A DNA stretch of 64,000 nt, from NCBI GenBank assembly GCA_902493595.1, contig CABUPU010000004.1, forward strand, positions 9,958 to 73,957, given 5' to 3'. A program made the translations under genes and the position numbers. Position 1 is the stretch's first letter, and each line of letters opens with the position of its first letter. The notes beneath the pieces were generated by a model, which saw nothing but the letters and a program-made list of their open reading frames with translations, did no database searches and had not been told where the DNA came from. The stretch comes from an uncultured Mycoplasma sp. (GTDB taxonomy: Bacteria; Bacillota_I; Bacilli_A; RF39; UBA660). Below are positions 2,839 through 63,646 of this stretch, in pieces.

Positions 2839-5499
2839 TTATTCATCTCCTTCTTTTATAACAAACTTGTAGCATTTTGAATTTGGGATTTTTCTTATTG
2901 AAGGAGATATAAATAATTTAAAAACACAATTTCCTTTTAGATATTCTATTTGATCTTCAACACTTCCTTTTTCCTCTAACCATTTAGTGTTCTTTTGTAT
3001 TTCATTTCTTGCACTTGTATTTGTTGAACAGTCTATAAGGTCATAATATACTCCATTTAAATAAGTACCTGACTCTTTTATATCTGGTTCATACATATCA
3101 ACCCTTGGTAAATCTTTTTTCTTAATTAAATAGATATCTCTTGCTTTAGGTATTTTTATTAAATCAATCTTTCTATTATTTATATCGATAGTTTTATCGT
3201 CAAAATTATTTAAGTTTAAAATTCGCCAATTGGATGGGCTTGTAATAATTACATATTTTTCCTTTTCGTTCAAGCCATCTATATATTTTACAAAGTCTTC
3301 CTTAATAACCTCTGCTATACTATCTAATTTTTTTAAATAATCTTTTGAAATTCCAGTAAGTATAGCACGTCCATAATCCTTGGAAATATTATCTAATCCA
3401 TAAACCTCATCAAAAAATAATTCTCTTCCCATTATTTGATTAATTCCAAATAATCTTTTATTTCTTTTATTAATAATTGAATACTTATTATTATCTTTTA
3501 AATATGATGTCAATTCATTTCCATTTTCTATCTCCTTAAAAATAATTTTTTTGAAACTCTCAGTTTTTTCTGAACTTATTTTGTTATTCTTAATATATTC
3601 TGCTTCAGCTTTTTTACATTCTTCCACTATTTTTTCTAAAACACTTATTAAAGATGAATTGTTGAAATTAACATCTAATACTGCCTCTAGCTTACTTTTC
3701 TCATCTGACTTCACTATATCTAATAATCTTTCATAAAAATATTTATTATCCTTTGAAATCAATTCAGAATTTATATCATCTGAATTTGAATATCCTATAC
3801 CAAACACATAAATGAATTCTTTCAAAATAAATATGTCGTCAACATGAATTCCGGACCATGAATTCCTATATTCTTTATTCTCAAATCTAAAATCAAAATG
3901 ATAATATACATCATGGACATTAGAAATAAAATTGTAATATTTTTTAAAATATTCTATAGCTTCATTTTGACTATAAAAATCTACAAAATTACTCTTAACA
4001 TAATTTATTAGCTTCTTTAATTCATCTTTATCTTCTTCATTAAATACATCCTTATTTGATAGAATAATTAACCCATATATAAACCCAAACGAAAATTGAA
4101 TCTTAATAATATCGTATGAATCAGGTTCACCATCAATAAATCCATTATAATCAAAAATAACATTATTAAATAAATCATTAATAGACTTGAATTCTTTTTT
4201 TATTATTAAATCAAACAAGAAATTCATTAAATTTGATAGTAAAACATCATAATATATAGAATCACTATTCTCTTTTATAGAATAGTAATCATACCTAAAT
4301 AATGAATTAGTAAAATCATATGATGTCTTTCTAACATCATCAGTAATTTCTAACTGTTCAGTATAACAATAATAAATATAGTTACTTAAAAACCTGTATC
4401 TTTCATAATCCTCATTAGAATAAGCTAAACTAGCTAACGTGCTTAAAAAATTTGCTAACTCTTTATTTTTATGTATATCTTTATAATATTTAATATATAT
4501 TTTTCTTATATATTCATATGAAATATCTAATAAAGATCTCATATTATTTTTATATAAAAAATTATAAAAATTAAATAATCTACTATCAGAATCAAAATTA
4601 TCATCTATATTAGTTTCTGCTAAAGAAAATAAATCATTAATTATCAAGTTAATTTCATTATCAAGATATGGAATACTATCATTTAATAAACATGAATTTC
4701 TTATACTGTCTTCATAATTTATGATTTCGTTTTTGCAATAAGCAACTGTCACACCTCTATTTATTTTTTCTCCACCTTTTAGTTTAAGAATTATTAAAGG
4801 ATCTATATATACTATAAGTTCTTTTCTTCTTCTGTTTTCTTCTTCTATCTTATCTATTATCGCTTGTAATGATCTACAACTATATGATTTAAAGATTCCA
4901 CTTTTATTTGCTTTTATTGGAATATAATCATCAATATTTTCTACATCAAAAGAAAAATATTTTTTATTGTCTTTCACAAATTTATCTATAGATTCATTTT
5001 TCAATTTCTTTTTTGAATTTTTAATGTTTCTATTATGAATTTCTATAAGTCTTTTTTCAATATATTTATCATATTCAGCAGAAAAATAGTCACTATCAGT
5101 ATTAAGTTTGATAGCTATTCCAAAAAGTTTAATTGTCAACCAAATAGAACGACAAATAAAAATATTTAATAACAATTCTACTACAAAAAATAAAATTTTG
5201 AATAAATCTGCACATTCTTTATTATATGGTATTATCTCTTTTATGATGCATAGTGATAATATAAGGATTGAAAAAGTCATGATACCTTTCATTCTTGTTT
5301 TTTCTAAAACAAATCTTTTGTGTGTTTCAACCTTCTTATCATTCATCGTCTCTGCAATAAATATTATAATTGCTACTAATACTCCGACTATCCCAACAAA
5401 CGCATCTATTCTCACACTTCCATTTAAAGGTTCAAAAATATTTACGTTCATCCAAATAATAAAATTATAAACATTTTTCATAAATTCTTCTATATTCAT
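2839..5499 (-). CDS. large membrane-anchored protein of unknown function (N-terminal ~4 TM helices, ~750-aa soluble region with no recognisable catalytic motif)
   Basis: 886-aa ORF with its own -10 TATAAT and a strong RBS GGAGGTAAAAG-ATG. No Walker A and no classical nuclease motif. A possible Rx4H (RLIEIH) sits after the TM block. Confidence 0.5.
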   Translation of the reverse strand: MNIEEFMKNVYNFIIWMNVNIFEPLNGSVRIDAFVGIVGVLVAIIIFIAETMNDKKVETHKRFVLEKTRMKGIMTFSILILSLCIIKEIIPYNKECADLFKILFFVVELLLNIFICRSIWLTIKLFGIAIKLNTDSDYFSAEYDKYIEKRLIEIHNRNIKNSKKKLKNESIDKFVKDNKKYFSFDVENIDDYIPIKANKSGIFKSYSCRSLQAIIDKIEEENRRRKELIVYIDPLIILKLKGGEKINRGVTVAYCKNEIINYEDSIRNSCLLNDSIPYLDNEINLIINDLFSLAETNIDDNFDSDSRLFNFYNFLYKNNMRSLLDISYEYIRKIYIKYYKDIHKNKELANFLSTLASLAYSNEDYERYRFLSNYIYYCYTEQLEITDDVRKTSYDFTNSLFRYDYYSIKENSDSIYYDVLLSNLMNFLFDLIIKKEFKSINDLFNNVIFDYNGFIDGEPDSYDIIKIQFSFGFIYGLIILSNKDVFNEEDKDELKKLINYVKSNFVDFYSQNEAIEYFKKYYNFISNVHDVYYHFDFRFENKEYRNSWSGIHVDDIFILKEFIYVFGIGYSNSDDINSELISKDNKYFYERLLDIVKSDEKSKLEAVLDVNFNNSSLISVLEKIVEECKKAEAEYIKNNKISSEKTESFKKIIFKEIENGNELTSYLKDNNKYSIINKRNKRLFGINQIMGRELFFDEVYGLDNISKDYGRAILTGISKDYLKKLDSIAEVIKEDFVKYIDGLNEKEKYVIITSPSNWRILNLNNFDDKTIDINNRKIDLIKIPKARDIYLIKKKDLPRVDMYEPDIKESGTYLNGVYYDLIDCSTNTSARNEIQKNTKWLEEKGSVEDQIEYLKGNCVFKLFISPSIRKIPNSKCYKFVIKEGDE

Positions 5500-20400: not shown

Positions 20401-20427
20401 CTTAATTAAAAAATAAAAATAATATCT

Positions 20428-20769
20428 TAATAAGCCATGTTCTGTACCATTACTGGTGACAAACATTTATCTATGTACAAAGTACATCTAGTCTTAGGTT
20501 CGTTTTCCCTTGACCAGCTCCCCTACCAAAATTTGGGTTTCTCACTCGCGGGGTTTACCACGTTCCACTTCTTTTATTTCTAAAAGACTCGTCTCTTTGG
20601 CACTTTTATACCTAATCATTTCATTTTCAGAAATTTTCGGAGCCGTTAGCATATGCTACCTTAAGTTATTTATTCCTTAAGCACGAACATATTATCCATC
20701 ACAGGATAAGTGAGCATGGACTTTCCTCAATAAAACTAAAAGTCTTACAGCGTTTGTCTAAAGATATTA
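20428..20769 (-). ncRNA. rnpB: RNase P RNA, type B (rnpB)
   Basis: The reverse strand contains GAGGAAAGUCCAUGCUCAC (P4 5' strand), GUGGAACGUGGUAAACCCCGCGAGUGAGAAACCCAAAUUUUGGUAGGGG (matches the B. subtilis rnpB P15-P18 block) and ACAGAACAUGGCUUA (P4 3' strand). The 5' UAAUAUCUU pairs with the 3' AAGAUAUUA to form P1. The 5' end abuts or overlaps the gpsB stop. Confidence 0.85.
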
Positions 20770-29364: not shown

Positions 29365-29452
29365 TGGTGCTTGTAATCGGGGTCGAACCGATACTTTCTT
29401 TTGGAAAAATAGATTTTGAGTCTATCGCGTCTACCAATTCCGCCATACAAGC
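29365..29452 (-). tRNA. tRNA-Leu (anticodon CAA), type II with a long variable arm, encoded CCA
   Basis: On the reverse strand: GCTTGTA-TG-GCGGAATTGGTAGACGCG-ATAGA-CTCAAAA-TCTAT-(variable arm)-ATCGG-TTCGACC-CCGAT-TACAAGC-A-CCA. Confidence 0.85.
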
Positions 29453-35027: not shown

Positions 35028-35104
35028 TGGCGGGGTATATCAACTGGCTAGATAGTTCGGTTCATACCCGAAATGTTGGGGGTTCGAGTCCCTCCCCCGC
35101 TACC
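35028..35104 (+). tRNA. tRNA-Met (anticodon CAT), elongator type
   Basis: GGCGGGG-TA-TATC-AACTGGCTA-GATA-G-TTCGG-TTCATAC-CCGAA-ATGTT-GGGGG-TTCGAGT-CCCTC-CCCCGCT-A-CCA. It is close to B. subtilis elongator tRNA-Met (G1-U72). Confidence 0.85.
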
Positions 35105-51720: not shown

Positions 51721-54700
51721 CTAATCAGTACTCTTTATTTTATTATAATAATTATATCTTTCTTTAGCATTATTAATTTGTATATTAAGAAGTTTATTTG
51801 CTAAAGAATTATCTTTTATTTTTAAAGCATTATATCTTACTTCATTATTTAAAAATTCTTCATACTTATCAAAATTAGGTTCTTTTGAATCAAGATATAG
51901 TTTATTATCTTTATATCTCATTAAAAGTGTATAACCACACTCTACTGCAAGTTTTTCTTCGTTAATTGAGTTACACATTCCACCCTTGATACCATGTTCT
52001 ATACAAGGACAATAACATATTACAATTGAGGGACCATTATGATTTTCTGCTTCAGTTAATGTTTTAATTGCTTGAACATTATTGGCTCCCAAACAAATTG
52101 ATCCAACATATACATTAGGGGCGCACATAGCAATTTTGAATAAATCTTTTTTACTAGTTTTCTTACCAAAATCTGCAAATTCAGCAACAGCACCAACTTT
52201 AGTTGATTTACTTGCTTGTCCTCCAGTATTTGAATAAACCTCTGTATCAAGAACTAAAATATTAATATTTTCATTTGAATGAAGAATATGATCTATTCCA
52301 TTATATCCTATATCATAAGCCCAACCATCACCACCAATAGCCCAAACACTTTTTTTAGGTATATATTCTTTTAAATCATATAATTCTTTTGGTAAAGTTA
52401 AATCATCCATATTTTTTACAAAATTATTTGTAATTTCATAATTATCAAAATTTAAAAGTAAATTTAAACAAGCATCTTTTTCTTTTTCAGAATAAGAATT
52501 AATAGAGTTAGAAATAATATTTTTTATTCTATTTCTTTTTTGCTTATATGATGTATAAATACCATAAGCAAATTCTGCATTATCTTCGAAAAGTGAATTT
52601 GCCCAAGGAACTAAATATGGTGTTGATGGAAAACTACCTCCGTAAATACTTGAACATCCTGTAGCATTAGCAATAACTAATTTTTCTCCAACAATTTGAG
52701 TTAATAATTTAATATATGGAGTTTCCCCACAACCAGCACAAGCGCCAGAAAATTCAAATAAAGGTTTTGTTAATGATATTCCTTTTATAGTGTTTTTTGG
52801 ATATAATGATGGATTTTCATATGTATTAAATAATTCATCCGTTGGAATAACATTTGTTTCTAAAGTAAGAGCTTTAGTAGGACAAACTCCTACGCATAAA
52901 CCACATCCAGTACAATCTTTATTACTAATACCTACAAAATAATTATATTCATCATTTCCTAAAAGAGGTTTACCAAGTGATTTATCTTTAGTAATAAATG
53001 GTCTTATTACACTATGAGGACAAACTATATTACATGCTCCACATTCAATACATTTATCTATATTCCATTTTGGAGTAAGCATAGAAACATCTCTTTTTTC
53101 ATATTTAGATAGTCCACATTTAACTCCACCATTACTAAACATTTTAACTTCACTTGTAGAAAGGTTTTCTCCTTTTCTATTATTTATTAAAGTATAAATA
53201 TCTTTTTCTTCATTTTCCTCTTTTGCAAAACTATCTATTATTTTTACATCTTTTATTTCATTTAATGATGCATTTATAGCATTAATATTATTATTAACAA
53301 CATCTTCACCTTTAGTCATAAAGGCCTTTTTAACGGAATTAACAACCATTTCTTTAGCATTTGGTACATTTAATAGATTAAGTATATTTACTTCCATAAT
53401 TTTGCTTATTTTGCCATTTAAATGATTTTCATAAGCAATCCTTTGTGCATTAATTATTTTTACATTTATATTTTTAGATATAATTTCTTTTTTTATAGAA
53501 CTACTTAAATAATCATTTAATTCTTTTTCATTTTTAATAGTATTTATTAAAAGGATTCCATTATCTTTTATACCAGAAAGCATATCATATCTTTCAAAGT
53601 AAACATCCTTTGTTACAACCACTAAAGTAGGACTAGTTACATAAAAAGGTGCATTAATACTATTATCTCCCATTCTTAAATGAGATATAGTTACTCCACC
53701 ACTTTTTTTAGAATCATATTCAAAATAACCTTCAACATATTTTCCTAAACTTTCATGTAATAATGTAAGCATATTTTTCGAGGCACTTACCATTCCATCT
53801 GAACCAAAACCATATATTTTAAATTCTTCATAATTATTAGATAATTTATAATCAGTTTTTGGTAAACTTAAATGAGTTAAATCATCATTTATACCAATTG
53901 TAAAACTATTTTGAGGTTTACTTTCTAAACTATCATAAACACTTTTTATATCACTAGGACTAGTATTTTTACTAGATAGTCCATATCTTCCTCCGACAAT
54001 CTCAATATTTTTATCTTTTAACGAAGATAATACATCTAAATAAAGTGGTTCACCAATACTTCCAGCTTCTTTAGTCCTATCTAATACAGCAATTTTTTGT
54101 ACGCTTTTAGGAAGTACTTGCTCTAAATATTTTTTACTAAATGGTCTATATAAATGAACCTCAATTAAGCCATAATCATTATTACCATTTTTTATTTCAT
54201 TATCAATTACAAGTTTAATAGTGTCATTTACACTACCCATTGCAATAATTATATATTTAGCATTATCACTTCCATAGTAATTAAATGGTTTATAACTAGT
54301 TCCCATTATTTCATTAATGTTAGTCATATATTCATTAACAATATCTGGCATTTTATCATATAATTCATTTCTACTTTCAGTTATTTGAAAATATACATCC
54401 TCAGTTTGACTTGTTCCATAATTTAAATCTGAAAGTAATGCTCTTTTCTTAAAACTTTCTAAAGCATTTTTATCTACTAAAGGAAGTAGTTTTTCTTCGG
54501 GTAATTCTTTTATTGTATTAAGTTCATGACTTGTTCTAAAACCATCAAAAAAGTGTATAAAAGGAAGACTTCCCTTTATCGCAGACAAATGTGCTACTGC
54601 CGCAAGGTTTTGAGCATCATAAACATTACTACTTGCAAGCATGCAGCATCCTGTCATTCTCGCAGAATATATATCACTATGATCACCAAATATTGAAAGA

Positions 54701-55047
54701 GCATGTGTTGCAATACTTCTAGCAGCAACATGAATTACTCCAGGAAGACATTCACCCGCTATTTTATATAAATTTGGAATCATTAATAGTAATCCTTGAC
54801 TTGCTGTATAAGTAGATGCTAAACTTCCAGATAATAATGCTCCATGAAGTGCACCAGCCGCTCCAAGTTCTGATTCCATTTCTACCACAGTAGGTTTATC
54901 ATTAAATATATTTTTTTTATCAGTATGCGTTAAATAATCAATATTTTCAGCCATCGGTGAGGATGGTGTAATTGGATATATTGAACATATCTCACTAAAC
55001 AAATATGCTACACTACTACACGCTTTATTTCCATCAACTATTTTCAT
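51721..55047 (-). CDS. nifJ: pyruvate:ferredoxin (flavodoxin) oxidoreductase, single-chain PFOR
   Basis: N-terminal 'IYPITPSSPM', ferredoxin 'CIECGACNIVCPH' / 'CTGCGLCVGVCP' and TPP motif 'GGDGWAYDIGYNG'. Confidence 0.9.
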   Translation of the reverse strand: MKIVDGNKACSSVAYLFSEICSIYPITPSSPMAENIDYLTHTDKKNIFNDKPTVVEMESELGAAGALHGALLSGSLASTYTASQGLLLMIPNLYKIAGECLPGVIHVAARSIATHALSIFGDHSDIYSARMTGCCMLASSNVYDAQNLAAVAHLSAIKGSLPFIHFFDGFRTSHELNTIKELPEEKLLPLVDKNALESFKKRALLSDLNYGTSQTEDVYFQITESRNELYDKMPDIVNEYMTNINEIMGTSYKPFNYYGSDNAKYIIIAMGSVNDTIKLVIDNEIKNGNNDYGLIEVHLYRPFSKKYLEQVLPKSVQKIAVLDRTKEAGSIGEPLYLDVLSSLKDKNIEIVGGRYGLSSKNTSPSDIKSVYDSLESKPQNSFTIGINDDLTHLSLPKTDYKLSNNYEEFKIYGFGSDGMVSASKNMLTLLHESLGKYVEGYFEYDSKKSGGVTISHLRMGDNSINAPFYVTSPTLVVVTKDVYFERYDMLSGIKDNGILLINTIKNEKELNDYLSSSIKKEIISKNINVKIINAQRIAYENHLNGKISKIMEVNILNLLNVPNAKEMVVNSVKKAFMTKGEDVVNNNINAINASLNEIKDVKIIDSFAKEENEEKDIYTLINNRKGENLSTSEVKMFSNGGVKCGLSKYEKRDVSMLTPKWNIDKCIECGACNIVCPHSVIRPFITKDKSLGKPLLGNDEYNYFVGISNKDCTGCGLCVGVCPTKALTLETNVIPTDELFNTYENPSLYPKNTIKGISLTKPLFEFSGACAGCGETPYIKLLTQIVGEKLVIANATGCSSIYGGSFPSTPYLVPWANSLFEDNAEFAYGIYTSYKQKRNRIKNIISNSINSYSEKEKDACLNLLLNFDNYEITNNFVKNMDDLTLPKELYDLKEYIPKKSVWAIGGDGWAYDIGYNGIDHILHSNENINILVLDTEVYSNTGGQASKSTKVGAVAEFADFGKKTSKKDLFKIAMCAPNVYVGSICLGANNVQAIKTLTEAENHNGPSIVICYCPCIEHGIKGGMCNSINEEKLAVECGYTLLMRYKDNKLYLDSKEPNFDKYEEFLNNEVRYNALKIKDNSLANKLLNIQINNAKERYNYYNKIKSTD

Positions 55048-55090: not shown

Positions 55091-56308
55091 CTAGTTTAAT
55101 TTATCTTCGATTTCCATAAGTCGATTATATTTACAAATCCTTTCTCCTCTTGAAACAGAACCTGTTTTAATAAAATCAAGATTTAGTCCTACACCTAAGT
55201 CCGCAATAAAGGTATCCATTGTTTCACCACTTCGATGAGAAATAATTGTTTTATACCCATTTTTCTTTGCGGTATAAATAGTATCTAAAAATTCAGTTAC
55301 ACTACCAACTTGATTAGCTTTAAGAAGTATTGCATTTCCAGCACCAAGTTCTATACCTTTTTCTAAATATTTTTTTTGAGATACAAATAAATCATCACCA
55401 ACAATCATTATTTTACCATTAAAATATTTAGTTAATTTACTAAAACTTTCATAATCATTTTCTTCGAAAGGATCTTCAATACTTATAATTGGATATTTTT
55501 TTATTAAATCTACATAATAATCAAATAATTCATCCTTTGATAACTTTTTACCATCGACTAAATAGCTATTTCCATCGTATAGTTCTGATGCTGCAACATC
55601 AAGGGCAAAAAATACATCAGTTCCTGGAGTATAACCACTTTCTGTAATAGCCTTTACTAAAATCATTAAGGCTTCTTCATTATTTTTTAAATCTGGTGCA
55701 AATCCACCTTCATCACCAACACCTGTTGATAAATGATAACCCTTTAAAATAGATTTTAAAGTATTAAATATTTCACTTGCACATCTAATTCTTTCTTTTT
55801 CCTCTTTTTGAACAGGAACAAGCATAAACTCTTGAATATCTAAATTATTATCAGCGTGTTTTCCACCGTTAATAACATTAATCATTGGTACAGGCATATT
55901 AAATTTACCAGTACTAACAAACTCAAATAATTCTTTACCTTCGAGTTTTGCTAAACATTTTAAAGCACATAGTGATACCCCTAAAATGGCATTAGCTCCA
56001 AGTTTAGATTTATTTTCAGTTCCATCAAGTTCAAGCATCTTTTTATCAACATTTTTAATATTTAAATCCATATTATAAAGTGCTGGGAATATTATTTCAT
56101 TAACATTTCTTACAGCCTTTAAAACACCTTTACCATGATATCTTTCATCATTATCACGAAGTTCTAACGCTTCCTTACTTCCTGTTGAGGCTCCAGATGG
56201 AATAGATGATACAGCCTCAACTCCATTTTCTAAGGCCAAAGTTACCTCTAAAGTGGGATTTGATCTACTATCAAGAATTTCTCTTGCTTTTATTTCTTTT
56301 ATCTTCAT
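55091..56308 (-). CDS. eno: enolase (phosphopyruvate hydratase)
   Basis: 'ILDSRSNPTLEV' and 'SHRSGETED'-like 'SHRSGETMDTFIADL'. Confidence 0.9.
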   Translation of the reverse strand: MKIKEIKAREILDSRSNPTLEVTLALENGVEAVSSIPSGASTGSKEALELRDNDERYHGKGVLKAVRNVNEIIFPALYNMDLNIKNVDKKMLELDGTENKSKLGANAILGVSLCALKCLAKLEGKELFEFVSTGKFNMPVPMINVINGGKHADNNLDIQEFMLVPVQKEEKERIRCASEIFNTLKSILKGYHLSTGVGDEGGFAPDLKNNEEALMILVKAITESGYTPGTDVFFALDVAASELYDGNSYLVDGKKLSKDELFDYYVDLIKKYPIISIEDPFEENDYESFSKLTKYFNGKIMIVGDDLFVSQKKYLEKGIELGAGNAILLKANQVGSVTEFLDTIYTAKKNGYKTIISHRSGETMDTFIADLGVGLNLDFIKTGSVSRGERICKYNRLMEIEDKLN

Positions 56309-56996: not shown

Positions 56997-58235
56997 ATGC
57001 AAATAAGAACAATTACTTTAAAAGAATTTCAAGATTTTTCTGAAAACTGGGAACATCAAAATTTTCATCAAAGTATTAGTTATGCTCTTTTAAAAAGTGA
57101 AGAGGGCTATGAATATGAAATGATTGGCTATTTTGATGGTGATTCAATAGTTGCTAGTGCTCTTGTACTTGTTCAAATGATTAATAGTTATCTATATGCA
57201 TATGTTCCCGAAGGCTTTTTAATTGATTATAAAAATGAAAACTTACTAAATAATTTTACTAAAGATTTAATAAACTTCTATAAAAAAGAGGGTATTGCTT
57301 TTATAAGAATAAATCCTACAATACCTATTGCTAAAATAGATAATAAAACAAAAAATCCTATATATAATGATAACTACCGTATAATAGAAATATTAAATAG
57401 ATGCGGTTATATAAAAATAGATACCTCTAAAGTATTTACTTCAATACTACCTACTTATGAAGCAATTGTAAATTTAGATAGTTTTAATATAAATAATTTA
57501 AATAAAAATGTTAGAAATAAAATTAGAAAATGTGAAAGAAAAGGTTTAATTATAGAAAAATCTGATGCACTAAGTATGGATAAATTATATAAATTTATTA
57601 AAAATAAAATACATAAAGATATGTTTCATTATAGTGATTATTATAATATTTTTAATAAAGAAAATGCTATTGATTACTTTTTAGTTAAAATAGATAATGA
57701 AAGTTTAGCAATAAATAGTCAAAAAGCTTATGAAGAAGAAAAAGAAAAAAATGAACTTTTAAGTAAAAAACTTCTTAAAGTACCAAGTGAAAAAAATATT
57801 AATAAAAAGATGAATTCTGATAAAGCACTTCTTTGTTTAAAAGAGGATATACTTCTTTCAAATAAATATCTTGCTAATAATGAAGATAATTATATAGCGG
57901 GAGCTCTTGTTATAAAATGCAAAGATAAAATATCTATTTTAGTAAGTGGTTATGATAAAAAATATCAATCATTTTCACCAAATTATTTCTTATTTTATAA
58001 AATATTAATGAACTATAAAAATAATTATAAATTTGCCTCTTTAGGGGGTGTCTCTGGTAACTTTTCAAAAGATAGTAAATATTATGGTCTTGACAATTTT
58101 AAAATGGGATTTAAACCAGATATATATGAATATATTGGAGAATTTGATTTAATATTAAATAAAATAAATTATTATTTCTTAAATAAAAAGAATTTAGTAG
58201 AAAAAGAATTTCAAAAAAATAAGTATCTAAAATAA
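56997..58235 (+). CDS. FemAB-family aminoacyl-tRNA-dependent peptidyltransferase (putative peptidoglycan branch-peptide synthesis)
   Basis: ~410 aa GNAT-tandem architecture with a central coiled-coil insertion ('EEEKEKNELLSKKLLK'), as in FemA/FemB/MurM. Confidence 0.5.
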   Translation: MQIRTITLKEFQDFSENWEHQNFHQSISYALLKSEEGYEYEMIGYFDGDSIVASALVLVQMINSYLYAYVPEGFLIDYKNENLLNNFTKDLINFYKKEGIAFIRINPTIPIAKIDNKTKNPIYNDNYRIIEILNRCGYIKIDTSKVFTSILPTYEAIVNLDSFNINNLNKNVRNKIRKCERKGLIIEKSDALSMDKLYKFIKNKIHKDMFHYSDYYNIFNKENAIDYFLVKIDNESLAINSQKAYEEEKEKNELLSKKLLKVPSEKNINKKMNSDKALLCLKEDILLSNKYLANNEDNYIAGALVIKCKDKISILVSGYDKKYQSFSPNYFLFYKILMNYKNNYKFASLGGVSGNFSKDSKYYGLDNFKMGFKPDIYEYIGEFDLILNKINYYFLNKKNLVEKEFQKNKYLK

Positions 58236-58242
58236 CAGATAC

Positions 58243-58446
58243 TTATTTTTGTAATAATAAATAAAGTTTTAAATATATAGAAATATCTTCATTATTATTT
58301 AATAAAATATTATATAAATCTATAGTCCTAATTCCCATTTTATATGCAATATCTACCATATTTATTTTATTACTAGCAATTAGTTTTAAACATCTATTAG
58401 ATATATTAGTTATAAAATCATTTTTTTCTTTCATTAGTTTCTCCAT
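58243..58446 (-). CDS. small protein with a possible HTH
   Basis: 67 aa; 'MVDIAYKMGIRTIDLYNILL' is HTH-like. Confidence 0.25.
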   Translation of the reverse strand: MEKLMKEKNDFITNISNRCLKLIASNKINMVDIAYKMGIRTIDLYNILLNNNEDISIYLKLYLLLQK

Positions 58447-58527
58447 AAATTACTTCATTTATTAATTTTTTATTTTTATTTATAAAATTAAAAGTTAAAT
58501 CAATTATATTATTTTTATTACCAAAGG

Positions 58528-59556
58528 CTAATATATAAATATTATTATTATATTCAATGTTAGTGCTTGCTCACCCAAAGTATTAACTCTTATTATATAA
58601 TTACTATCTATATTAACCTTTACTGGTTCAATACCTTTTTTATAGTCTAAATTACCCATCTGGAGTTTATTTAATAGTTCTATTGGTATATTTATATCTG
58701 TTAAGTTAATAACTTCATTAGGCATCTCAAATACGTTTTCTTTAGGGATAATTTTTTTACATTCTTCATAAATATCATACATACTATCAAGTAATTTAGT
58801 TATTTCTTCATCCGAGGATATATTAGAGTTAATCATTATATCTAACTTTCTTTCGAGTGTTTGTAAAACAGTTAATAAAGTAATAAAATTAACTTCAGGG
58901 TACATAGCATTATCAAAATCTAAATATGGTTTTGCAAGTGATAATATACTTACTACTGCTTCATTATTTAAATAATCTTTATATAATAATTCATTACTTT
59001 TAAGAAATGCTATTATAGAAATATATTTTTCATTATGAAAAAAGTTCTCTTTTACTTTGTTATCTCTTTTTGGAAGTTCAACTTTAGAAAGAGATGCATC
59101 AAAATTATTCTCAACAGGTTTTCTTTTATTAGGTTTATAATTAGATAAAACTATATTTATTTCACTAATAGAAAATTTATGTTTCATCATAAATTTAGTT
59201 ATAAATGAATAATCAAGTGATCCATTATCAAAATCCTCTTTTAGATCAGATAGTTCATAATATCTTTTATCAACATTTTCAAAAATAGAATTATTTAATA
59301 TTGTTGATATAATAGAATCATATAGTGAAAATTCATAATAATCTTTTTCTGTTAAATTTTTACCCTCTATAATTAAATTTCTAAAATCATTTTTAAAGTA
59401 TTTATTATTTTCAGGGTAGTCTAAAAGAGGATATAATTTTTTTATATCCATCGAAGAAGTAAACTTTTTTAATATACCTAAAAAATTTAATTCGGATAAA
59501 ATCTCTTTATAATACTCTAATAAATAATTATTAAATTTGTCCATTGTATTTGTCAT
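58528..59556 (-). CDS. hypothetical protein (342 aa), no recognisable domain
   Basis: ORF only; accessory context next to the tuf-adjacent insertion. Confidence 0.35.
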   Translation of the reverse strand: MTNTMDKFNNYLLEYYKEILSELNFLGILKKFTSSMDIKKLYPLLDYPENNKYFKNDFRNLIIEGKNLTEKDYYEFSLYDSIISTILNNSIFENVDKRYYELSDLKEDFDNGSLDYSFITKFMMKHKFSISEINIVLSNYKPNKRKPVENNFDASLSKVELPKRDNKVKENFFHNEKYISIIAFLKSNELLYKDYLNNEAVVSILSLAKPYLDFDNAMYPEVNFITLLTVLQTLERKLDIMINSNISSDEEITKLLDSMYDIYEECKKIIPKENVFEMPNEVINLTDINIPIELLNKLQMGNLDYKKGIEPVKVNIDSNYIIRVNTLGEQALTLNIIIIFIY

Positions 59557-59575
59557 ATACTACTCTACCCTAGAT

Positions 59576-59625
59576 AATTTTAACATAATATAATTAAAGT
59601 TGCAAATAAAAAAACCACGAAATTA
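59576..59625. repeat. ~50-bp direct repeat copy A (a degenerate copy of the tuf 3' terminator region)
   Basis: ATTTTAACATA..ATATAAT..GTTGCAAATAAAAAAACCACGAAATTA; compare 60268-60317. Confidence 0.6.
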
Positions 59626-59674
59626 CTTCAGTGATTTTTAAAATTTATTATACTTTTATATTTTTTAAATATGT

Positions 59675-60244
59675 TTAGTACCATTTTTGTAATTCGGGGT
59701 TTTCCCTATTTAATACTAATTTTTTTCCTTCCATTTTTGATGATTCATAGTACACATCACAAATACAGTCAAACTTTAACTCGTTATTACTACGACTTAT
59801 TTTAACACCTCTTTTTTGAAACTCATTATATATTTTTCTTAAATTAAAACCAACAAATTTGTTTAAAACTTCTTCCCATATATTATTTTTATATAAAATA
59901 CTTCCTCTTACATCATGTTCTAAAGAATATTCCTTGTTAAGAATAGAAAAAAATCTTGTTTTATCATTTTGTAAATTTGTAATTTTTAAAACATTATCAA
60001 TCCCTTTAAAAGTTGATAAATATTTAATTCTATATACCTTTGGAATAGGATTTCCAGCATTTTTATAAAACCATTTTTGTAATTGCTTTATGTTATCAAA
60101 AAATAATGGGCTTTTTTTATAAGTACTTGTATGTGCTGGAATATAAACATCACTATTTATTTCATCACTATAATAATACTCACCACCATCGTAAGATATT
60201 TCATAAGGAACAATATATAATAGTTCTATATCATTTTCATTCAT
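59675..60244 (-). CDS. hypothetical protein (189 aa), no recognisable domain; inserted between tuf and copy A of its terminator
   Basis: ORF flanked by duplicated terminator-region repeats. Confidence 0.35.
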   Translation of the reverse strand: MNENDIELLYIVPYEISYDGGEYYYSDEINSDVYIPAHTSTYKKSPLFFDNIKQLQKWFYKNAGNPIPKVYRIKYLSTFKGIDNVLKITNLQNDKTRFFSILNKEYSLEHDVRGSILYKNNIWEEVLNKFVGFNLRKIYNEFQKRGVKISRSNNELKFDCICDVYYESSKMEGKKLVLNRENPELQKWY

Positions 60245-60267
60245 ACCAAAACCTTCTTTCTTGCACT

Positions 60268-60317
60268 ATATTTTAACATATAATGGGTTGAGTTGCAAAT
60301 AAAAAAACCACGAAATT
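60268..60317. repeat. ~50-bp direct repeat copy B, including the tuf rho-independent terminator
   Basis: Minus transcript: CACGA-uuaauu-UCGUG followed by GUUUUUUUAUUUG. Confidence 0.6.
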
Positions 60318-60339
60318 AATCGTGATTTTTAGTTATTCC

Positions 60340-61506
60340 TTATTTTAAAATTTCAGAAATAACACCAGCACCAACAGTTCTTCCACCTTCACGGATAGAG
60401 AATTTAGTACCTTTTTCAAGAGCTACTGGAGCAATTAGTTCAACAGTCATGTCAACTTTATCGCCAGGCATAACCATTTCAACACCAGCAGGTAGTTCAA
60501 TAACACCTGTTACGTCAGTAGTTCTGAAATAGAATTGTGGTCTATAATTTGAGAAGAATGGAGTATGTCTTCCGCCTTCTTCTTTAGATAGAACATAAAC
60601 ACTTGCAGTGAATTTTGTATGAGGTGTAACGCTTCCTGGTTTAGCTAAAACTTGTCCACGTTCAACATCATCTCTAGAAATACCACGAAGTAAAACTCCA
60701 GCGTTATCTCCAGCTTCAGCAAAGTCTAATGTTTTTCTAAACATTTCAATACCAGTTACAACTGATTTTTGAGTAGGTCTTAAACCAACGATTTCAACTT
60801 CGTCATTAAGTTTAAGAATACCTCTTTCAACACGACCAGTAACAACTGTACCACGTCCTGAAATAGTAAATACATCTTCAATACTCATTAAGAATGGTTT
60901 ATCAGTATCTCTTACTGGTGATGGAATATATTCATCAACAGCAGCCATAAGGTCACGGATACTCTTTTCAGCTTCAGGATCTCCTTCAAGAGCCTTAAGA
61001 GCTGAACCTCTTATGATAGGACATTCAGTGTCATAACCATATTCTCCTAATAATTCTCTGATTTCCATTTCTACTAAATCAAGTAATTCTGGATCATCAA
61101 CTTGATCACATTTGTTCATGAAAACAACAATTTTAGGTACTCCAACTTGTCTAGCAAGTAAGATATGCTCTCTTGTTTGAGGCATAGGACCATCTGCAGC
61201 TGATACTACTAGAATAGCACCATCCATTTGAGCTGCACCAGTAATCATGTTTTTTACGTAGTCAGCATGTCCTGGACAGTCAACGTGAGCATAGTGACGT
61301 TTTGCAGTCTCATACTCAACGTGTGCAGTATTAATAGTAATACCTCTTTCTCTTTCTTCTGGAGCTTTATCGATATCTGCATAATCAACAAATTTTCCAA
61401 AGTATTTAGTGATCGCAGCAGTTAATGTAGTTTTACCATGGTCTACGTGTCCAATAGTACCAATATTAACGTGTTCTTTTGAACGATCAAATTTTTCTCT
61501 TGCCAT
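60340..61506 (-). CDS. tuf: elongation factor Tu
   Basis: '[15 protein letters not shown]' and 'DCPGHADY'. Confidence 0.95.
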
Positions 61507-61573
61507 ATAATATTTTCCTCCTTTTCTACTATTATATTTTATCTAATGCTTGAAAAAATTTCAAGTATTATTC

Positions 61574-63646
61574 TTAATTAACGCTGTTTTTCTTAATAAT
61601 ATCTTCAGCGATTGATTTTGGAACCTCTTCATAGTGGTCCATAAACATTGTAAATGTTCCTCTACCTTGAGTATTACTTCTTAAAGAAGTTGCATAACCA
61701 AACATTTCAGCAAGTGGAACCATTGCAACTATTGAAAGTGCATTTCCTCTTGATTCATTACCCATTGGTTTACCTCTTCTTGAAGTTAAGTCACCCATAA
61801 CATTTCCTAAATATTCTTCAGGAACTACTACTTCAACCTTCATTATAGGTTCAAGAAGTACAGGTTTACATTTATTTTTTGCTTCTTTTAAAGCTAGTGA
61901 TGCAGCAACTTTGAAAGCCATTTCTGATGAGTCTACATCATGGTATGAACCATCAAATAATGTTGCCTTAACATCTACCATTGGATAACCAGCAAGGATA
62001 CCACCAGCCATGGCCTCTTGTAATCCTTTATCTGTAACTGGAATATATTCTCTTGGAACTACTCCACCAACGATAGCATCAACAAATTCATAACCTTTAC
62101 CAGGATTTGGTTCAAATCTAACCCAAACATGTCCATATTGTCCACGTCCACCTGATTGTTTAATGTATTTACCTTCACATTCACCCATTTGAGTAAGTGT
62201 TTCACGATAAGCAACTTGTGGTTTGCCAACATTACAATCAACGTTAAATTCTCTTCTCATTCTTTCAACAAGAACGTCTAAGTGAAGTTCACCCATTCCT
62301 GAAATAACTGTTTGACCAGTTTCATGATCAGTATGATATTTAAATGATGGATCTTCACCAGCAAGTTTAGATAGCGCAGTTGCCATCTTATCTTGATCTG
62401 CTTTACTCTTAGGTTCAATAGCAAGGTCAATAACTGGTTCTGGAATTTCCATACCTTTTAAAATAACTGGATTTTTTTCATCACATAGAGTGTCTGCAGT
62501 AGTAGTATCTTTTAAACCTACAGCAGCGGCAATTTCACCTGCATAAACACAATCAATTTCTTTTCTTGTATTTGCATGCATTTGTAAAATACGACCAACT
62601 CTTTCTTTTTCACCTTTTGTTGAATTTAGTACATAACTACCACTTGAAAGTTTACCAGAATAAACTCTAAAGAAAGTTAGTGTTCCAACAAATGGATCTG
62701 TCATAACTTTAAATGCTAAAGCAGTAAATGGTTCATTATCATCTGCTTTTCTTAATACATCGTTACCATTTTTATCTACACATTCAGCTGCACCAATATC
62801 AAGTGGGCTTGGTAAATAATCAATAACAGCATCAAGAGCAAATTTAATACCCATATTAGCTTTTGCACTACCTACAGTAACAGGGAAGAATTTAACTGCT
62901 AAAGTTCCTTTTCTTATTGCTCTTTTTACAAGATCAACAGATACTTCTTCACCCTCTAGGTATTTTTCCATTAATTCATCGTCAAATTCAGCAACTGCTT
63001 CAATAAGGTCAGTTCTTTTTTCTTCGATGAAATCTTTCATATCTTCAGGAACATCTGTTTCAGTATAATTTTCATCTGCTGAACCATCATACATTAATGC
63101 CTTACGATTTAAAATATCAATAATACCTTTAAAATTAGATTCTGCTCCAATTGGCCATGCAATAGGTTTTGCATTAACACCAAGTCTTTTCTTAATTGTT
63201 TCAAGACTATATTCATAGTCAGCACCTAATTTATCCATCTTGTTAGCAAAAACAAGACGAGGTACATTAAATTCAGTAGCTTGTCTCCAAACTGTTTCAG
63301 TTTGAGGTTCTACACCATTTTGAGCATCAAGTACAGTAACTGCACCATCAAGTACTCTTAAACTTCTTTCAACTTCAATTGTGAAGTCTACGTGACCTGG
63401 AGTATCAATAATATTAAGTCTATAACCTTTCCAATGTGCTGTTGTTGCAGCGGAAGTAATTGTTATACCTCTTTCTTTTTCTTGATCCATCCAGTCCATT
63501 TGGCTCTCACCATCGTGAGTTTCACCAATTTTATGAATTTTACCAGTATGATATAAAACTCTTTCTGTAAATGTTGTTTTACCAGCATCTATGTGAGCCA
63601 TTATACCAATATTTCTAGTTTTATCTAATGAAACATCTCTTGCCAT
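61574..63646 (-). CDS. fusA: elongation factor G
   Basis: 'AHIDAGKTT' and 'DTPGHVDF'. Confidence 0.95.

Follow-up and report, generated by a model that had tools for sequence, protein, structure and literature searches.

Gene order at the tuf locus

The window, i.e., the whole analysed stretch of 64,000 nucleotides, belongs to the lineage of the "Mycoplasma sp. CAG:472" group of uncultured Bacilli (~25% GC) and matches a contig from the human gut (L001) over 10 kb with 100% identity. The locus considered here has ribosomal-protein genes, fusA, tuf, FemAB, and eno as its neighbours. The fusA and tuf genes and the three ORFs encoding 189, 342, and 67 amino acids (aa) all lie on the minus strand, whereas the FemAB-family gene lies on the plus strand. 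The features, in the order of transcription from fusA, are as follows (the evidence for each is given in parentheses).

61574–63646, minus strand: fusA (ORF list)
60340–61506, minus strand: tuf, encoding EF-Tu (388 aa), the last gene of the rpsL-rpsG-fusA-tuf operon (ORF; Pfam GTP_EFTU, D2, and D3 on the identical gene of L001)
60303–60330, minus strand: T1, predicted intrinsic terminator hairpin of tuf, left part of module copy 1 (terminator scan and folding)
60270–60298, minus strand: P1, predicted promoter copy now preceding ORF189 (promoter scan)
60245–60269, minus strand: ORF189 leader, cassette-specific, 25 nt (sequence reading; missing in empty alleles)
59675–60244, minus strand: ORF189, accessory gene of 189 aa (570 nt) from an uncharacterised family of ~200-aa proteins (ORF list)
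59640–59674, minus strand: ORF189 3' trailer, cassette-specific, 35 nt (missing in empty alleles)
59610–59639, minus strand: T2, weakened second copy of the terminator hairpin (folding and alignment of the copies)
59577–59605, minus strand: P2, predicted resident promoter of the 380-aa gene (promoter scan; TTGCAA, 17 nt with TG, TAAAAT)
58528–59556, minus strand: ORF342, resident 380-aa gene shortened by a frameshift (comparison with relatives)
58243–58446, minus strand: ORF67 (63 aa as called in relatives), resident small gene (ORF list and relatives)
56997–58235, plus strand: FemAB-family gene, convergent, the right-hand boundary of the block (Pfam FemAB, E 8e-51)

The ORF189 leader carries a Shine–Dalgarno-like GAAGG 7 nt ahead of the ATG. 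Elsewhere in the window there are a class B RNase P RNA (262 bits; 20426–20765, minus strand) and two tRNA genes (29368–29452, minus strand, and 35029–35102, plus strand), while tuf and fusA have no in-frame TGA. The RNase P RNA and the tRNA genes are ordinary and fit a Bacilli-type genome on the standard code.

A duplicated putative terminator–promoter module

The repeat finder reports a direct repeat of 49 nt in two copies, 59577–59625 and 60270–60318, which are 86% identical and start 693 nt apart. Its exact core of 27 nt, GTTGCAAATAAAAAAACCACGAAATTA, occurs exactly twice in the 64-kb window, even if three mismatches are allowed, and had no match in 100 dinucleotide-preserving shuffles. On the minus strand, the similarity continues through the 5' arm of the hairpin (AAAAATCAC), hence, the repeated modules span 60270–60330 and 59577–59639 (61–63 nt). 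Each module on the coding strand is composed of a hairpin, a T-run, TTGCAA, a 17-nt spacer ending in TG, and TAAAAT, that is, the tuf terminator combined with a predicted sigma-70-type promoter of the next gene, the 380-aa gene. The two copies bracket the 189-aa ORF (59675–60244, minus strand).

An earlier note on this DNA, made from the letters alone, had described a ~50-bp tuf terminator segment present twice, with an intact hairpin in the copy at 60268 and a degenerate one in the copy at 59576, bracketing a 189-aa ORF with no recognisable domain. All of this holds: the coordinates are off by 1–2 nt only, the predicted folding energies of the hairpins are -11.4 and -7.5 kcal/mol, respectively, and the ORF has no match in Pfam, NCBIfam, PHROG, or PADLOC. 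The duplicated segment is indeed a terminator region, as the note had it, but it also comprises a complete predicted promoter of the downstream gene. The TATAAT mentioned there does exist on the plus strand; however, this is the wrong strand for genes encoded on the minus strand, and the -10 element is TAAAAT following TG.

T1 has an 11-bp stem, a 6-nt loop, and a T-run (z -5.5 for its folding energy), and is the sole minus-strand terminator-like site flagged by the scan within 58000–61700. It is identical in the inspected cassette-free alleles, except for a few positions in the most distant lineage (66–69% identity of the 380-aa protein). In T2 (z -2.4), the GAT of the T1 loop is replaced by TGAAG, i.e., 3 nt by 5 nt. 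In P1, the -35 element TTGCAA (60293–60298) is separated by the 17-nt spacer ending in TG from the -10 element TAAAAT (60270–60275); in P2, the -10 element TAAAAT lies at 59577–59582, again preceded by TG. P1 and P2 are the only promoter-like sites with the TG extension in 58000–61700. In DNA as AT-rich as this, hexamer pairs resembling promoters show no enrichment (36 found vs. 28 expected), so the scan by itself proves little, and the comparison of lineages carries more weight. Among relatives from three lineages, variation affects the spacer and the hairpin loop, but neither the two hexamers, nor the TG (TGnTAAAAT together with the -10 element), nor most positions of the stem; the P2 hexamers are invariant in every inspected allele, and the P2 spacer differs between lineages. 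From these sequence features, we infer promoter and terminator activity of the modules. For P1, the activity is uncertain, as 9 of the 10 loci with the commonest ORF189 variant (L048–L057) have it altered, with TTGCAG in six and TG changed to TC in three. The downstream copy, P2, never varies. The changes in P1 suggest either relaxed constraint on ORF189 expression or selection lowering it.

Resident genes downstream of the module

Relatives of ORF342 are 380 aa long and are found at 96–99%, 87%, and 66% identity. Compared with one filled (L003) and one empty (L005) allele, the window has a 4-bp deletion (ATTT) between 58559 and 58558 that cuts the 380-aa gene to 342 aa. Either the gene is a pseudogene specific to this strain, or the window and L001 share a consensus error. 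The next gene (ORF67, or 63 aa in relatives) has 17 nt in common with the end of the 380-aa gene where the latter is intact. Its 67-aa product has a partial match to the PADLOC model PDC-S60 (E 1.2e-4, residues 22–55) and no Pfam match, hence, its previous label "HTH-like" was not confirmed.

All relatives have the same gene order: tuf, the 380-aa gene, the 63-aa gene, FemAB (on the opposite strand), DUF308, and enolase. Thus, of the block of three unknown genes between tuf and FemAB proposed in the earlier note, the order stands, but the 342/380-aa and 67/63-aa genes are resident. ORF189 and these two genes are adjacent, co-directional, and of no known function, and the 63-aa protein has the above weak partial match to a PADLOC candidate model, as might be expected of a single three-gene system, e.g., a defence or toxin–antitoxin-like island. 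We consider this improbable: the pair of 380-aa and 63-aa genes lacks ORF189 in all outgroups and in most of the genomes found, relatives of ORF189 elsewhere are never seen beside relatives of the 380-aa gene, ORF189 has its own predicted promoter and terminator copies, and in the window ORF189 is intact whereas the 380-aa gene is frameshifted.

A further difference between strains is seen beyond FemAB. In the window, enolase (55091–56308) is directly followed by the pyruvate:ferredoxin oxidoreductase gene (51721–55047). In four relatives (L005, 10561–12258; L006, 10561–12998; L008, 7180–9622; L011, 10560–12164), enolase is followed by an ORF of 535–565 aa without a Pfam match, and in L006 and L008 the next ORF after it is bAvd-like (114 aa), perhaps belonging to a diversity-generating retroelement as an accessory gene. 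The difference seems to be another strain-variable insertion, close to the first.

Filled and empty alleles

Comparison of the region downstream of tuf in relatives, proposed in the earlier note, revealed a repeat-free allele in more than 25 related contigs, including GTDB species representatives. In this empty allele, 90 bp separate tuf from the 380-aa gene; ORF189 is missing, and the one module present combines the T1 loop with the P2 spacer (L005–L019, L021, L022, L036–L038, L040–L047). The filled allele was found in the window, L001–L004, L020, L039, and L048–L057, every time at the tuf locus, which is also the only location of the commonest ORF189 variant; one of the five GTDB species representatives carries it (L020). 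Compared with the empty site, the filled allele contains in addition the 25-nt leader, the 570-nt ORF, and the 35-nt trailer (630 nt of cassette-specific DNA), and the second module.

Given that repeats can confuse assemblers, and that the tuf end appears twice, around an N-gap, in one filled scaffold (L054), one might take the repeat for an assembly artefact, or the ORF for a chance open frame. This explanation is hardly worth entertaining: the same filled structure recurs in many independent assemblies from different studies and assemblers, a 190-codon open frame is very unlikely to arise by chance in DNA with 23% GC, and ORF189 has a dN/dS of 0.25 (window vs. L020), remote homologues, and a confident fold prediction (see below). 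The L054 scaffold itself (1827–2079) has the tuf 3' end and the terminator on either side of its N-gap; this is an assembly problem, for which the repeat is probably responsible, rather than a third copy of the module.

Two outgroup lineages, with 380-aa proteins at 87% (L011–L014 and L021) and 66–69% (L015–L017 and L022) identity, are empty, which polarises the event as an insertion. This, together with the empty relatives, agrees with the initial reading of a gene inserted downstream of tuf. The opposite polarity would have ORF189 ancestral at the locus, with all empty alleles, those of the outgroups included, being deletions between the repeats. Such deletions are easy and restore the empty sequence exactly, and ORF189 of the window has diverged from that of L020 as much as the neighbouring gene has, although closer relatives are empty. 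However, both outgroup lineages have one module and no trace of ORF189, no ORF189 was recovered at the locus from them (the sole cluster at 90% identity is that of the window), and the origin of the duplicated module would still have to be explained; hence, we regard ancestral presence as unlikely, though less so than the other alternatives considered here. The extra gene after tuf is an ordinary gain/loss polymorphism among strains.

We also note two sites near the 3' end of tuf (60360 and 60367) where the window differs from the compared empty alleles and from the filled L020; one of the changes (GVISEILK vs. GVVSEILK) is shared by the filled L039.

Probable recombination between module copies

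Neighbor-joining trees based on the flanks, including one for the 380-aa plus 63-aa genes, mix filled and empty alleles, and pairs of filled and empty alleles have flanks that are 98.6–99.9% identical. Recombination of the flanking genes, rather than repeated excision, could be the source of this interspersion.

The modules themselves are mosaic. Of 10 adjacent positions in the P1 spacer of the window (CTCAACCCATTATA), seven differ from P2, and six of these match the 87% lineage, while tuf beside this patch is not of the 87%-lineage type. The common filled allele has reciprocal hybrid modules: the loop is of the chromosome type and the spacer of the foreign type in the left one, and in the right one the loop is foreign-type (variant) and the spacer chromosome-type. 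In other alleles, the copies have become alike in part: the P1 spacer of L020 is identical to its P2 spacer, and the T2 loop of L050 to its T1 loop. Between the window and L020, dS is 0.174 for ORF189 and 0.150 for the 380-aa gene; given this similarity, the cassette is older than the split of the two, yet closer relatives lack it. Taken together, the interspersion, the mosaic modules, and the dS values speak for homologous recombination as the cause of repeated loss, exchange, and gene conversion.

The empty-site sequence is exactly the one that a crossover within the 27-nt core of the filled allele would leave. Such a crossover, in and around the core, would delete the cassette precisely, regenerating the empty site with the predicted junction of the T1 loop GAT, the core, the P2 spacer TTTAATTATATTA, and TATCTAGGG. 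The predicted junction of the corresponding circle would consist of the ORF189 trailer, the T2 loop TGAAG, the core, the P1 spacer TCAACCCATTATA, and ATAGTGCAAG. The reciprocal hybrid modules are what one would expect from a core crossover involving a diverged (homeologous) module, supplied by a small circle or, as linear DNA, by a filled relative. The same process could carry the cassette between strains, convert parts of one module to the other, and maintain ORF189 as a presence/absence polymorphism in the population. An identical core of 27 nt is short for RecA-dependent exchange, which counts against this mechanism.

As a module is present on both sides, tuf keeps its terminator, ORF189 receives P1 and the weaker T2, and the 380-aa gene keeps P2, these signals being predicted ones. 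The insertion would thus form a self-contained transcription unit that leaves its neighbours undisturbed. Overall, we favour the reading of ORF189 as a single-gene accessory cassette, with a module on both sides, that is gained, lost, and exchanged by homologous recombination, the latter judged from allele patterns only; we hold this to be probable, if with some reserve.

Another reading of the same repeats is a site-specific mobile unit, of the integron type or a decayed or trans-mobilised integrative element, with the modules as attL and attR and the hairpin as the recombination site. The direct repeats with a short identical core and diverged arms, the imperfect palindrome at the 3' end of a lone ORF, and the reciprocal hybrid copies would all suit such a unit. 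However, in the identical contig L001, no Pfam domain of a recombinase, integrase, or transposase is found within 10 kb on either side; the cassette codes for ORF189 only; and terminal inverted repeats are missing, the repeat finder having detected no inverted repeat that pairs the cassette ends. The core motif is confined to this locus: the metagenome collection has it on 12 contigs, always at tuf, one of which (L039) is filled, and none of the 12 has another cassette at the site. Moreover, homologues of ORF189 found elsewhere are in unrelated contexts without the module. A site-specific unit is therefore very unlikely, slightly more so than the three-gene system discussed above.

The ORF189 protein family

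ORF189 is a real gene, as follows from its dN/dS, intact variants, remote family, and the confidence of its fold prediction. Its GC content (23%) is like that of its neighbours. The cluster at 90% identity comprises 22 variants, 15 of which were read; all of these are intact, 188–189 aa long, and are found together on ~100 contigs. A word-indexed search retrieved this cluster only, as if ORF189 were a true orphan, but an exhaustive HMMER search yielded 14 remote relatives with 26–46% identity and lengths of ~110–250 aa, most of them ~200 aa. ORF189 was also considered as a paralogue of the 380-aa gene, with an origin by tandem duplication; this was rejected (best BLASTP E 2.4).

Residues conserved in the family are W58, I67-P68, V85, T100, Y110, and W123, and the family motifs are WF..N.G.PIP.(V/I)Y and G(V/L).DVIKIT (P0037–P0051). 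Among the 15 variants of ORF189, the variable residues are at positions 19, 29–31, 41–43, 53, 65, 69, and 110–114, mostly in predicted loops, and the rest are invariant. The window and L020 differ at four of the five residues 110–114, and the codons there show no synonymous change. The AlphaFold2 model based on the 15-sequence alignment has pLDDT 89 and pTM 0.80, while the single-sequence model (pLDDT 34) was unusable. The predicted fold has no match in PDB or in viral models. Searches of ORF189 and its family against Pfam, NCBIfam, PHROGs, PADLOC, and PDB sequences gave scattered single-member noise only; searches of phage, plasmid, and IMG/VR collections with the protein and two sub-family alignments gave no match; and no similarity to transposases was detected.

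All examined loci of the family are in genomes with 23–30% GC. The contexts include an island with Peptidase_M78, DUF3419, and HD-domain genes; another island, in which a serine recombinase gene is accompanied by several HTH_3 genes; a position after an HTH gene and a sigma-70 gene; and positions between core genes. In one locus (L029), tandem paralogues of 208 aa each (3909–4535 and 4575–5201) directly follow a gene for a UvrD-type helicase of 1035 aa. In two loci, the family gene is followed by a DUF3419-like gene encoding 311–319 aa (L023, 4107–5042; L026, 2853–3812); the two products are 43% identical to each other and contain the motif LLTVGSSGDQVINA. The DUF3419-like gene is the only neighbour common to any family loci, and it is missing beside ORF189 of the window. 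None of the relatives found elsewhere is downstream of tuf, has the repeat, or is beside a relative of the 380-aa gene, and the non-coding ends of the cassette match neither the loci of family members nor the rest of the window, which holds no second copy.

ORF189 encodes a soluble protein of ~22 kDa that belongs to a small and uncharacterised family. There are no invariant residues of the catalytic type, and the conserved ones are hydrophobic or aromatic, which weakly favours a binding role over an enzymatic one. That this is a non-enzymatic binding function of a strain-level accessory or conflict factor is a guess, to which we assign a low probability.

Comparison with known systems

A literature search for the duplicated-terminator phenomenon yielded a single analogy, the wzy locus of Salmonella Typhimurium DT8/DT30, where one gene lies between two perfect direct repeats (PMC12074656). 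For wzy, excision, the circular product, and dependence on attL were shown experimentally, deletion and wild-type genotypes occur sporadically within one clade, and reacquisition from neighbouring strains was proposed (PMC12074656). As in wzy, ORF189 lies between direct repeats, has a precise empty allele with one copy of the repeat, and is present or absent in an interspersed manner among close relatives, for which recombination of the flanks is an alternative cause. Unlike those of wzy, the repeats at ORF189 are only 86% identical, with a 27-nt exact core, and coincide with a terminator–promoter module; moreover, the case presented here is known from sequences alone.

Integron cassettes similarly have a single ORF followed by an imperfect hairpin, and show presence/absence polymorphism. 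However, at the tuf locus there is no integrase or attI and no array, the ORF189 cassette carries a predicted promoter, and the repeat is a local sequence, with its core at the tuf locus only, rather than a member of an attC family. Unlike insertion sequences, transposons, and miniature inverted-repeat elements (MITEs), the cassette has neither terminal inverted repeats nor a transposase, and the flanking repeat is 49–63 nt long and imperfect; unlike integrative elements with attL and attR, it has no recombinase in the cassette or within 10 kb. Hence, lacking a recombinase within 10 kb, terminal inverted repeats, a shared att or attC family, and alternative cassettes, it fits none of these classes (integron, IS/MITE, or integrative element).

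Morons of phages are autonomous units, each composed of a promoter, an ORF, and a terminator, inserted between two genes. In layout, ORF189 resembles them: it is an added ORF for which a separate promoter and terminator are predicted, and it leaves the adjacent genes undisrupted. It differs in its location in the chromosomal str operon/tuf region, not a prophage, and in having no relatives in phage collections; furthermore, the regulatory signals of ORF189 are copies of resident ones, not imported.

Discussion

The kind of polymorphism described here is ordinary; its neat feature is the duplicated terminator–promoter module, and the protein family is undescribed. The locus is a clean and well-polarised example of a reduced, AT-rich gut bacterium acquiring a gene at a core locus of high expression, which stays undamaged. 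Duplication of the resident module gives each of the three genes a full set of predicted signals, and the same duplication would ease loss or exchange of ORF189.

One may speculate further that the module acts as a built-in recombination handle, making ORF189 rapidly switchable, with a circle excised and then re-integrated or exchanged between co-resident strains, and that ORF189 is a founder of new-fold small binding proteins in an arms race, possibly an immunity or anti-phage factor in reduced-genome gut Bacilli. As a whole, this scenario is a long shot, somewhat less likely still than the binding role taken separately.

The ORF189 family is not annotated anywhere; its structure is predicted with confidence, and no structural neighbour was detected in PDB or among viral models. 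Neither this nor the duplicated module overturns current understanding; the main value of the locus is that it documents an accessory-gene polymorphism and offers a candidate whose structure and function can be followed up.
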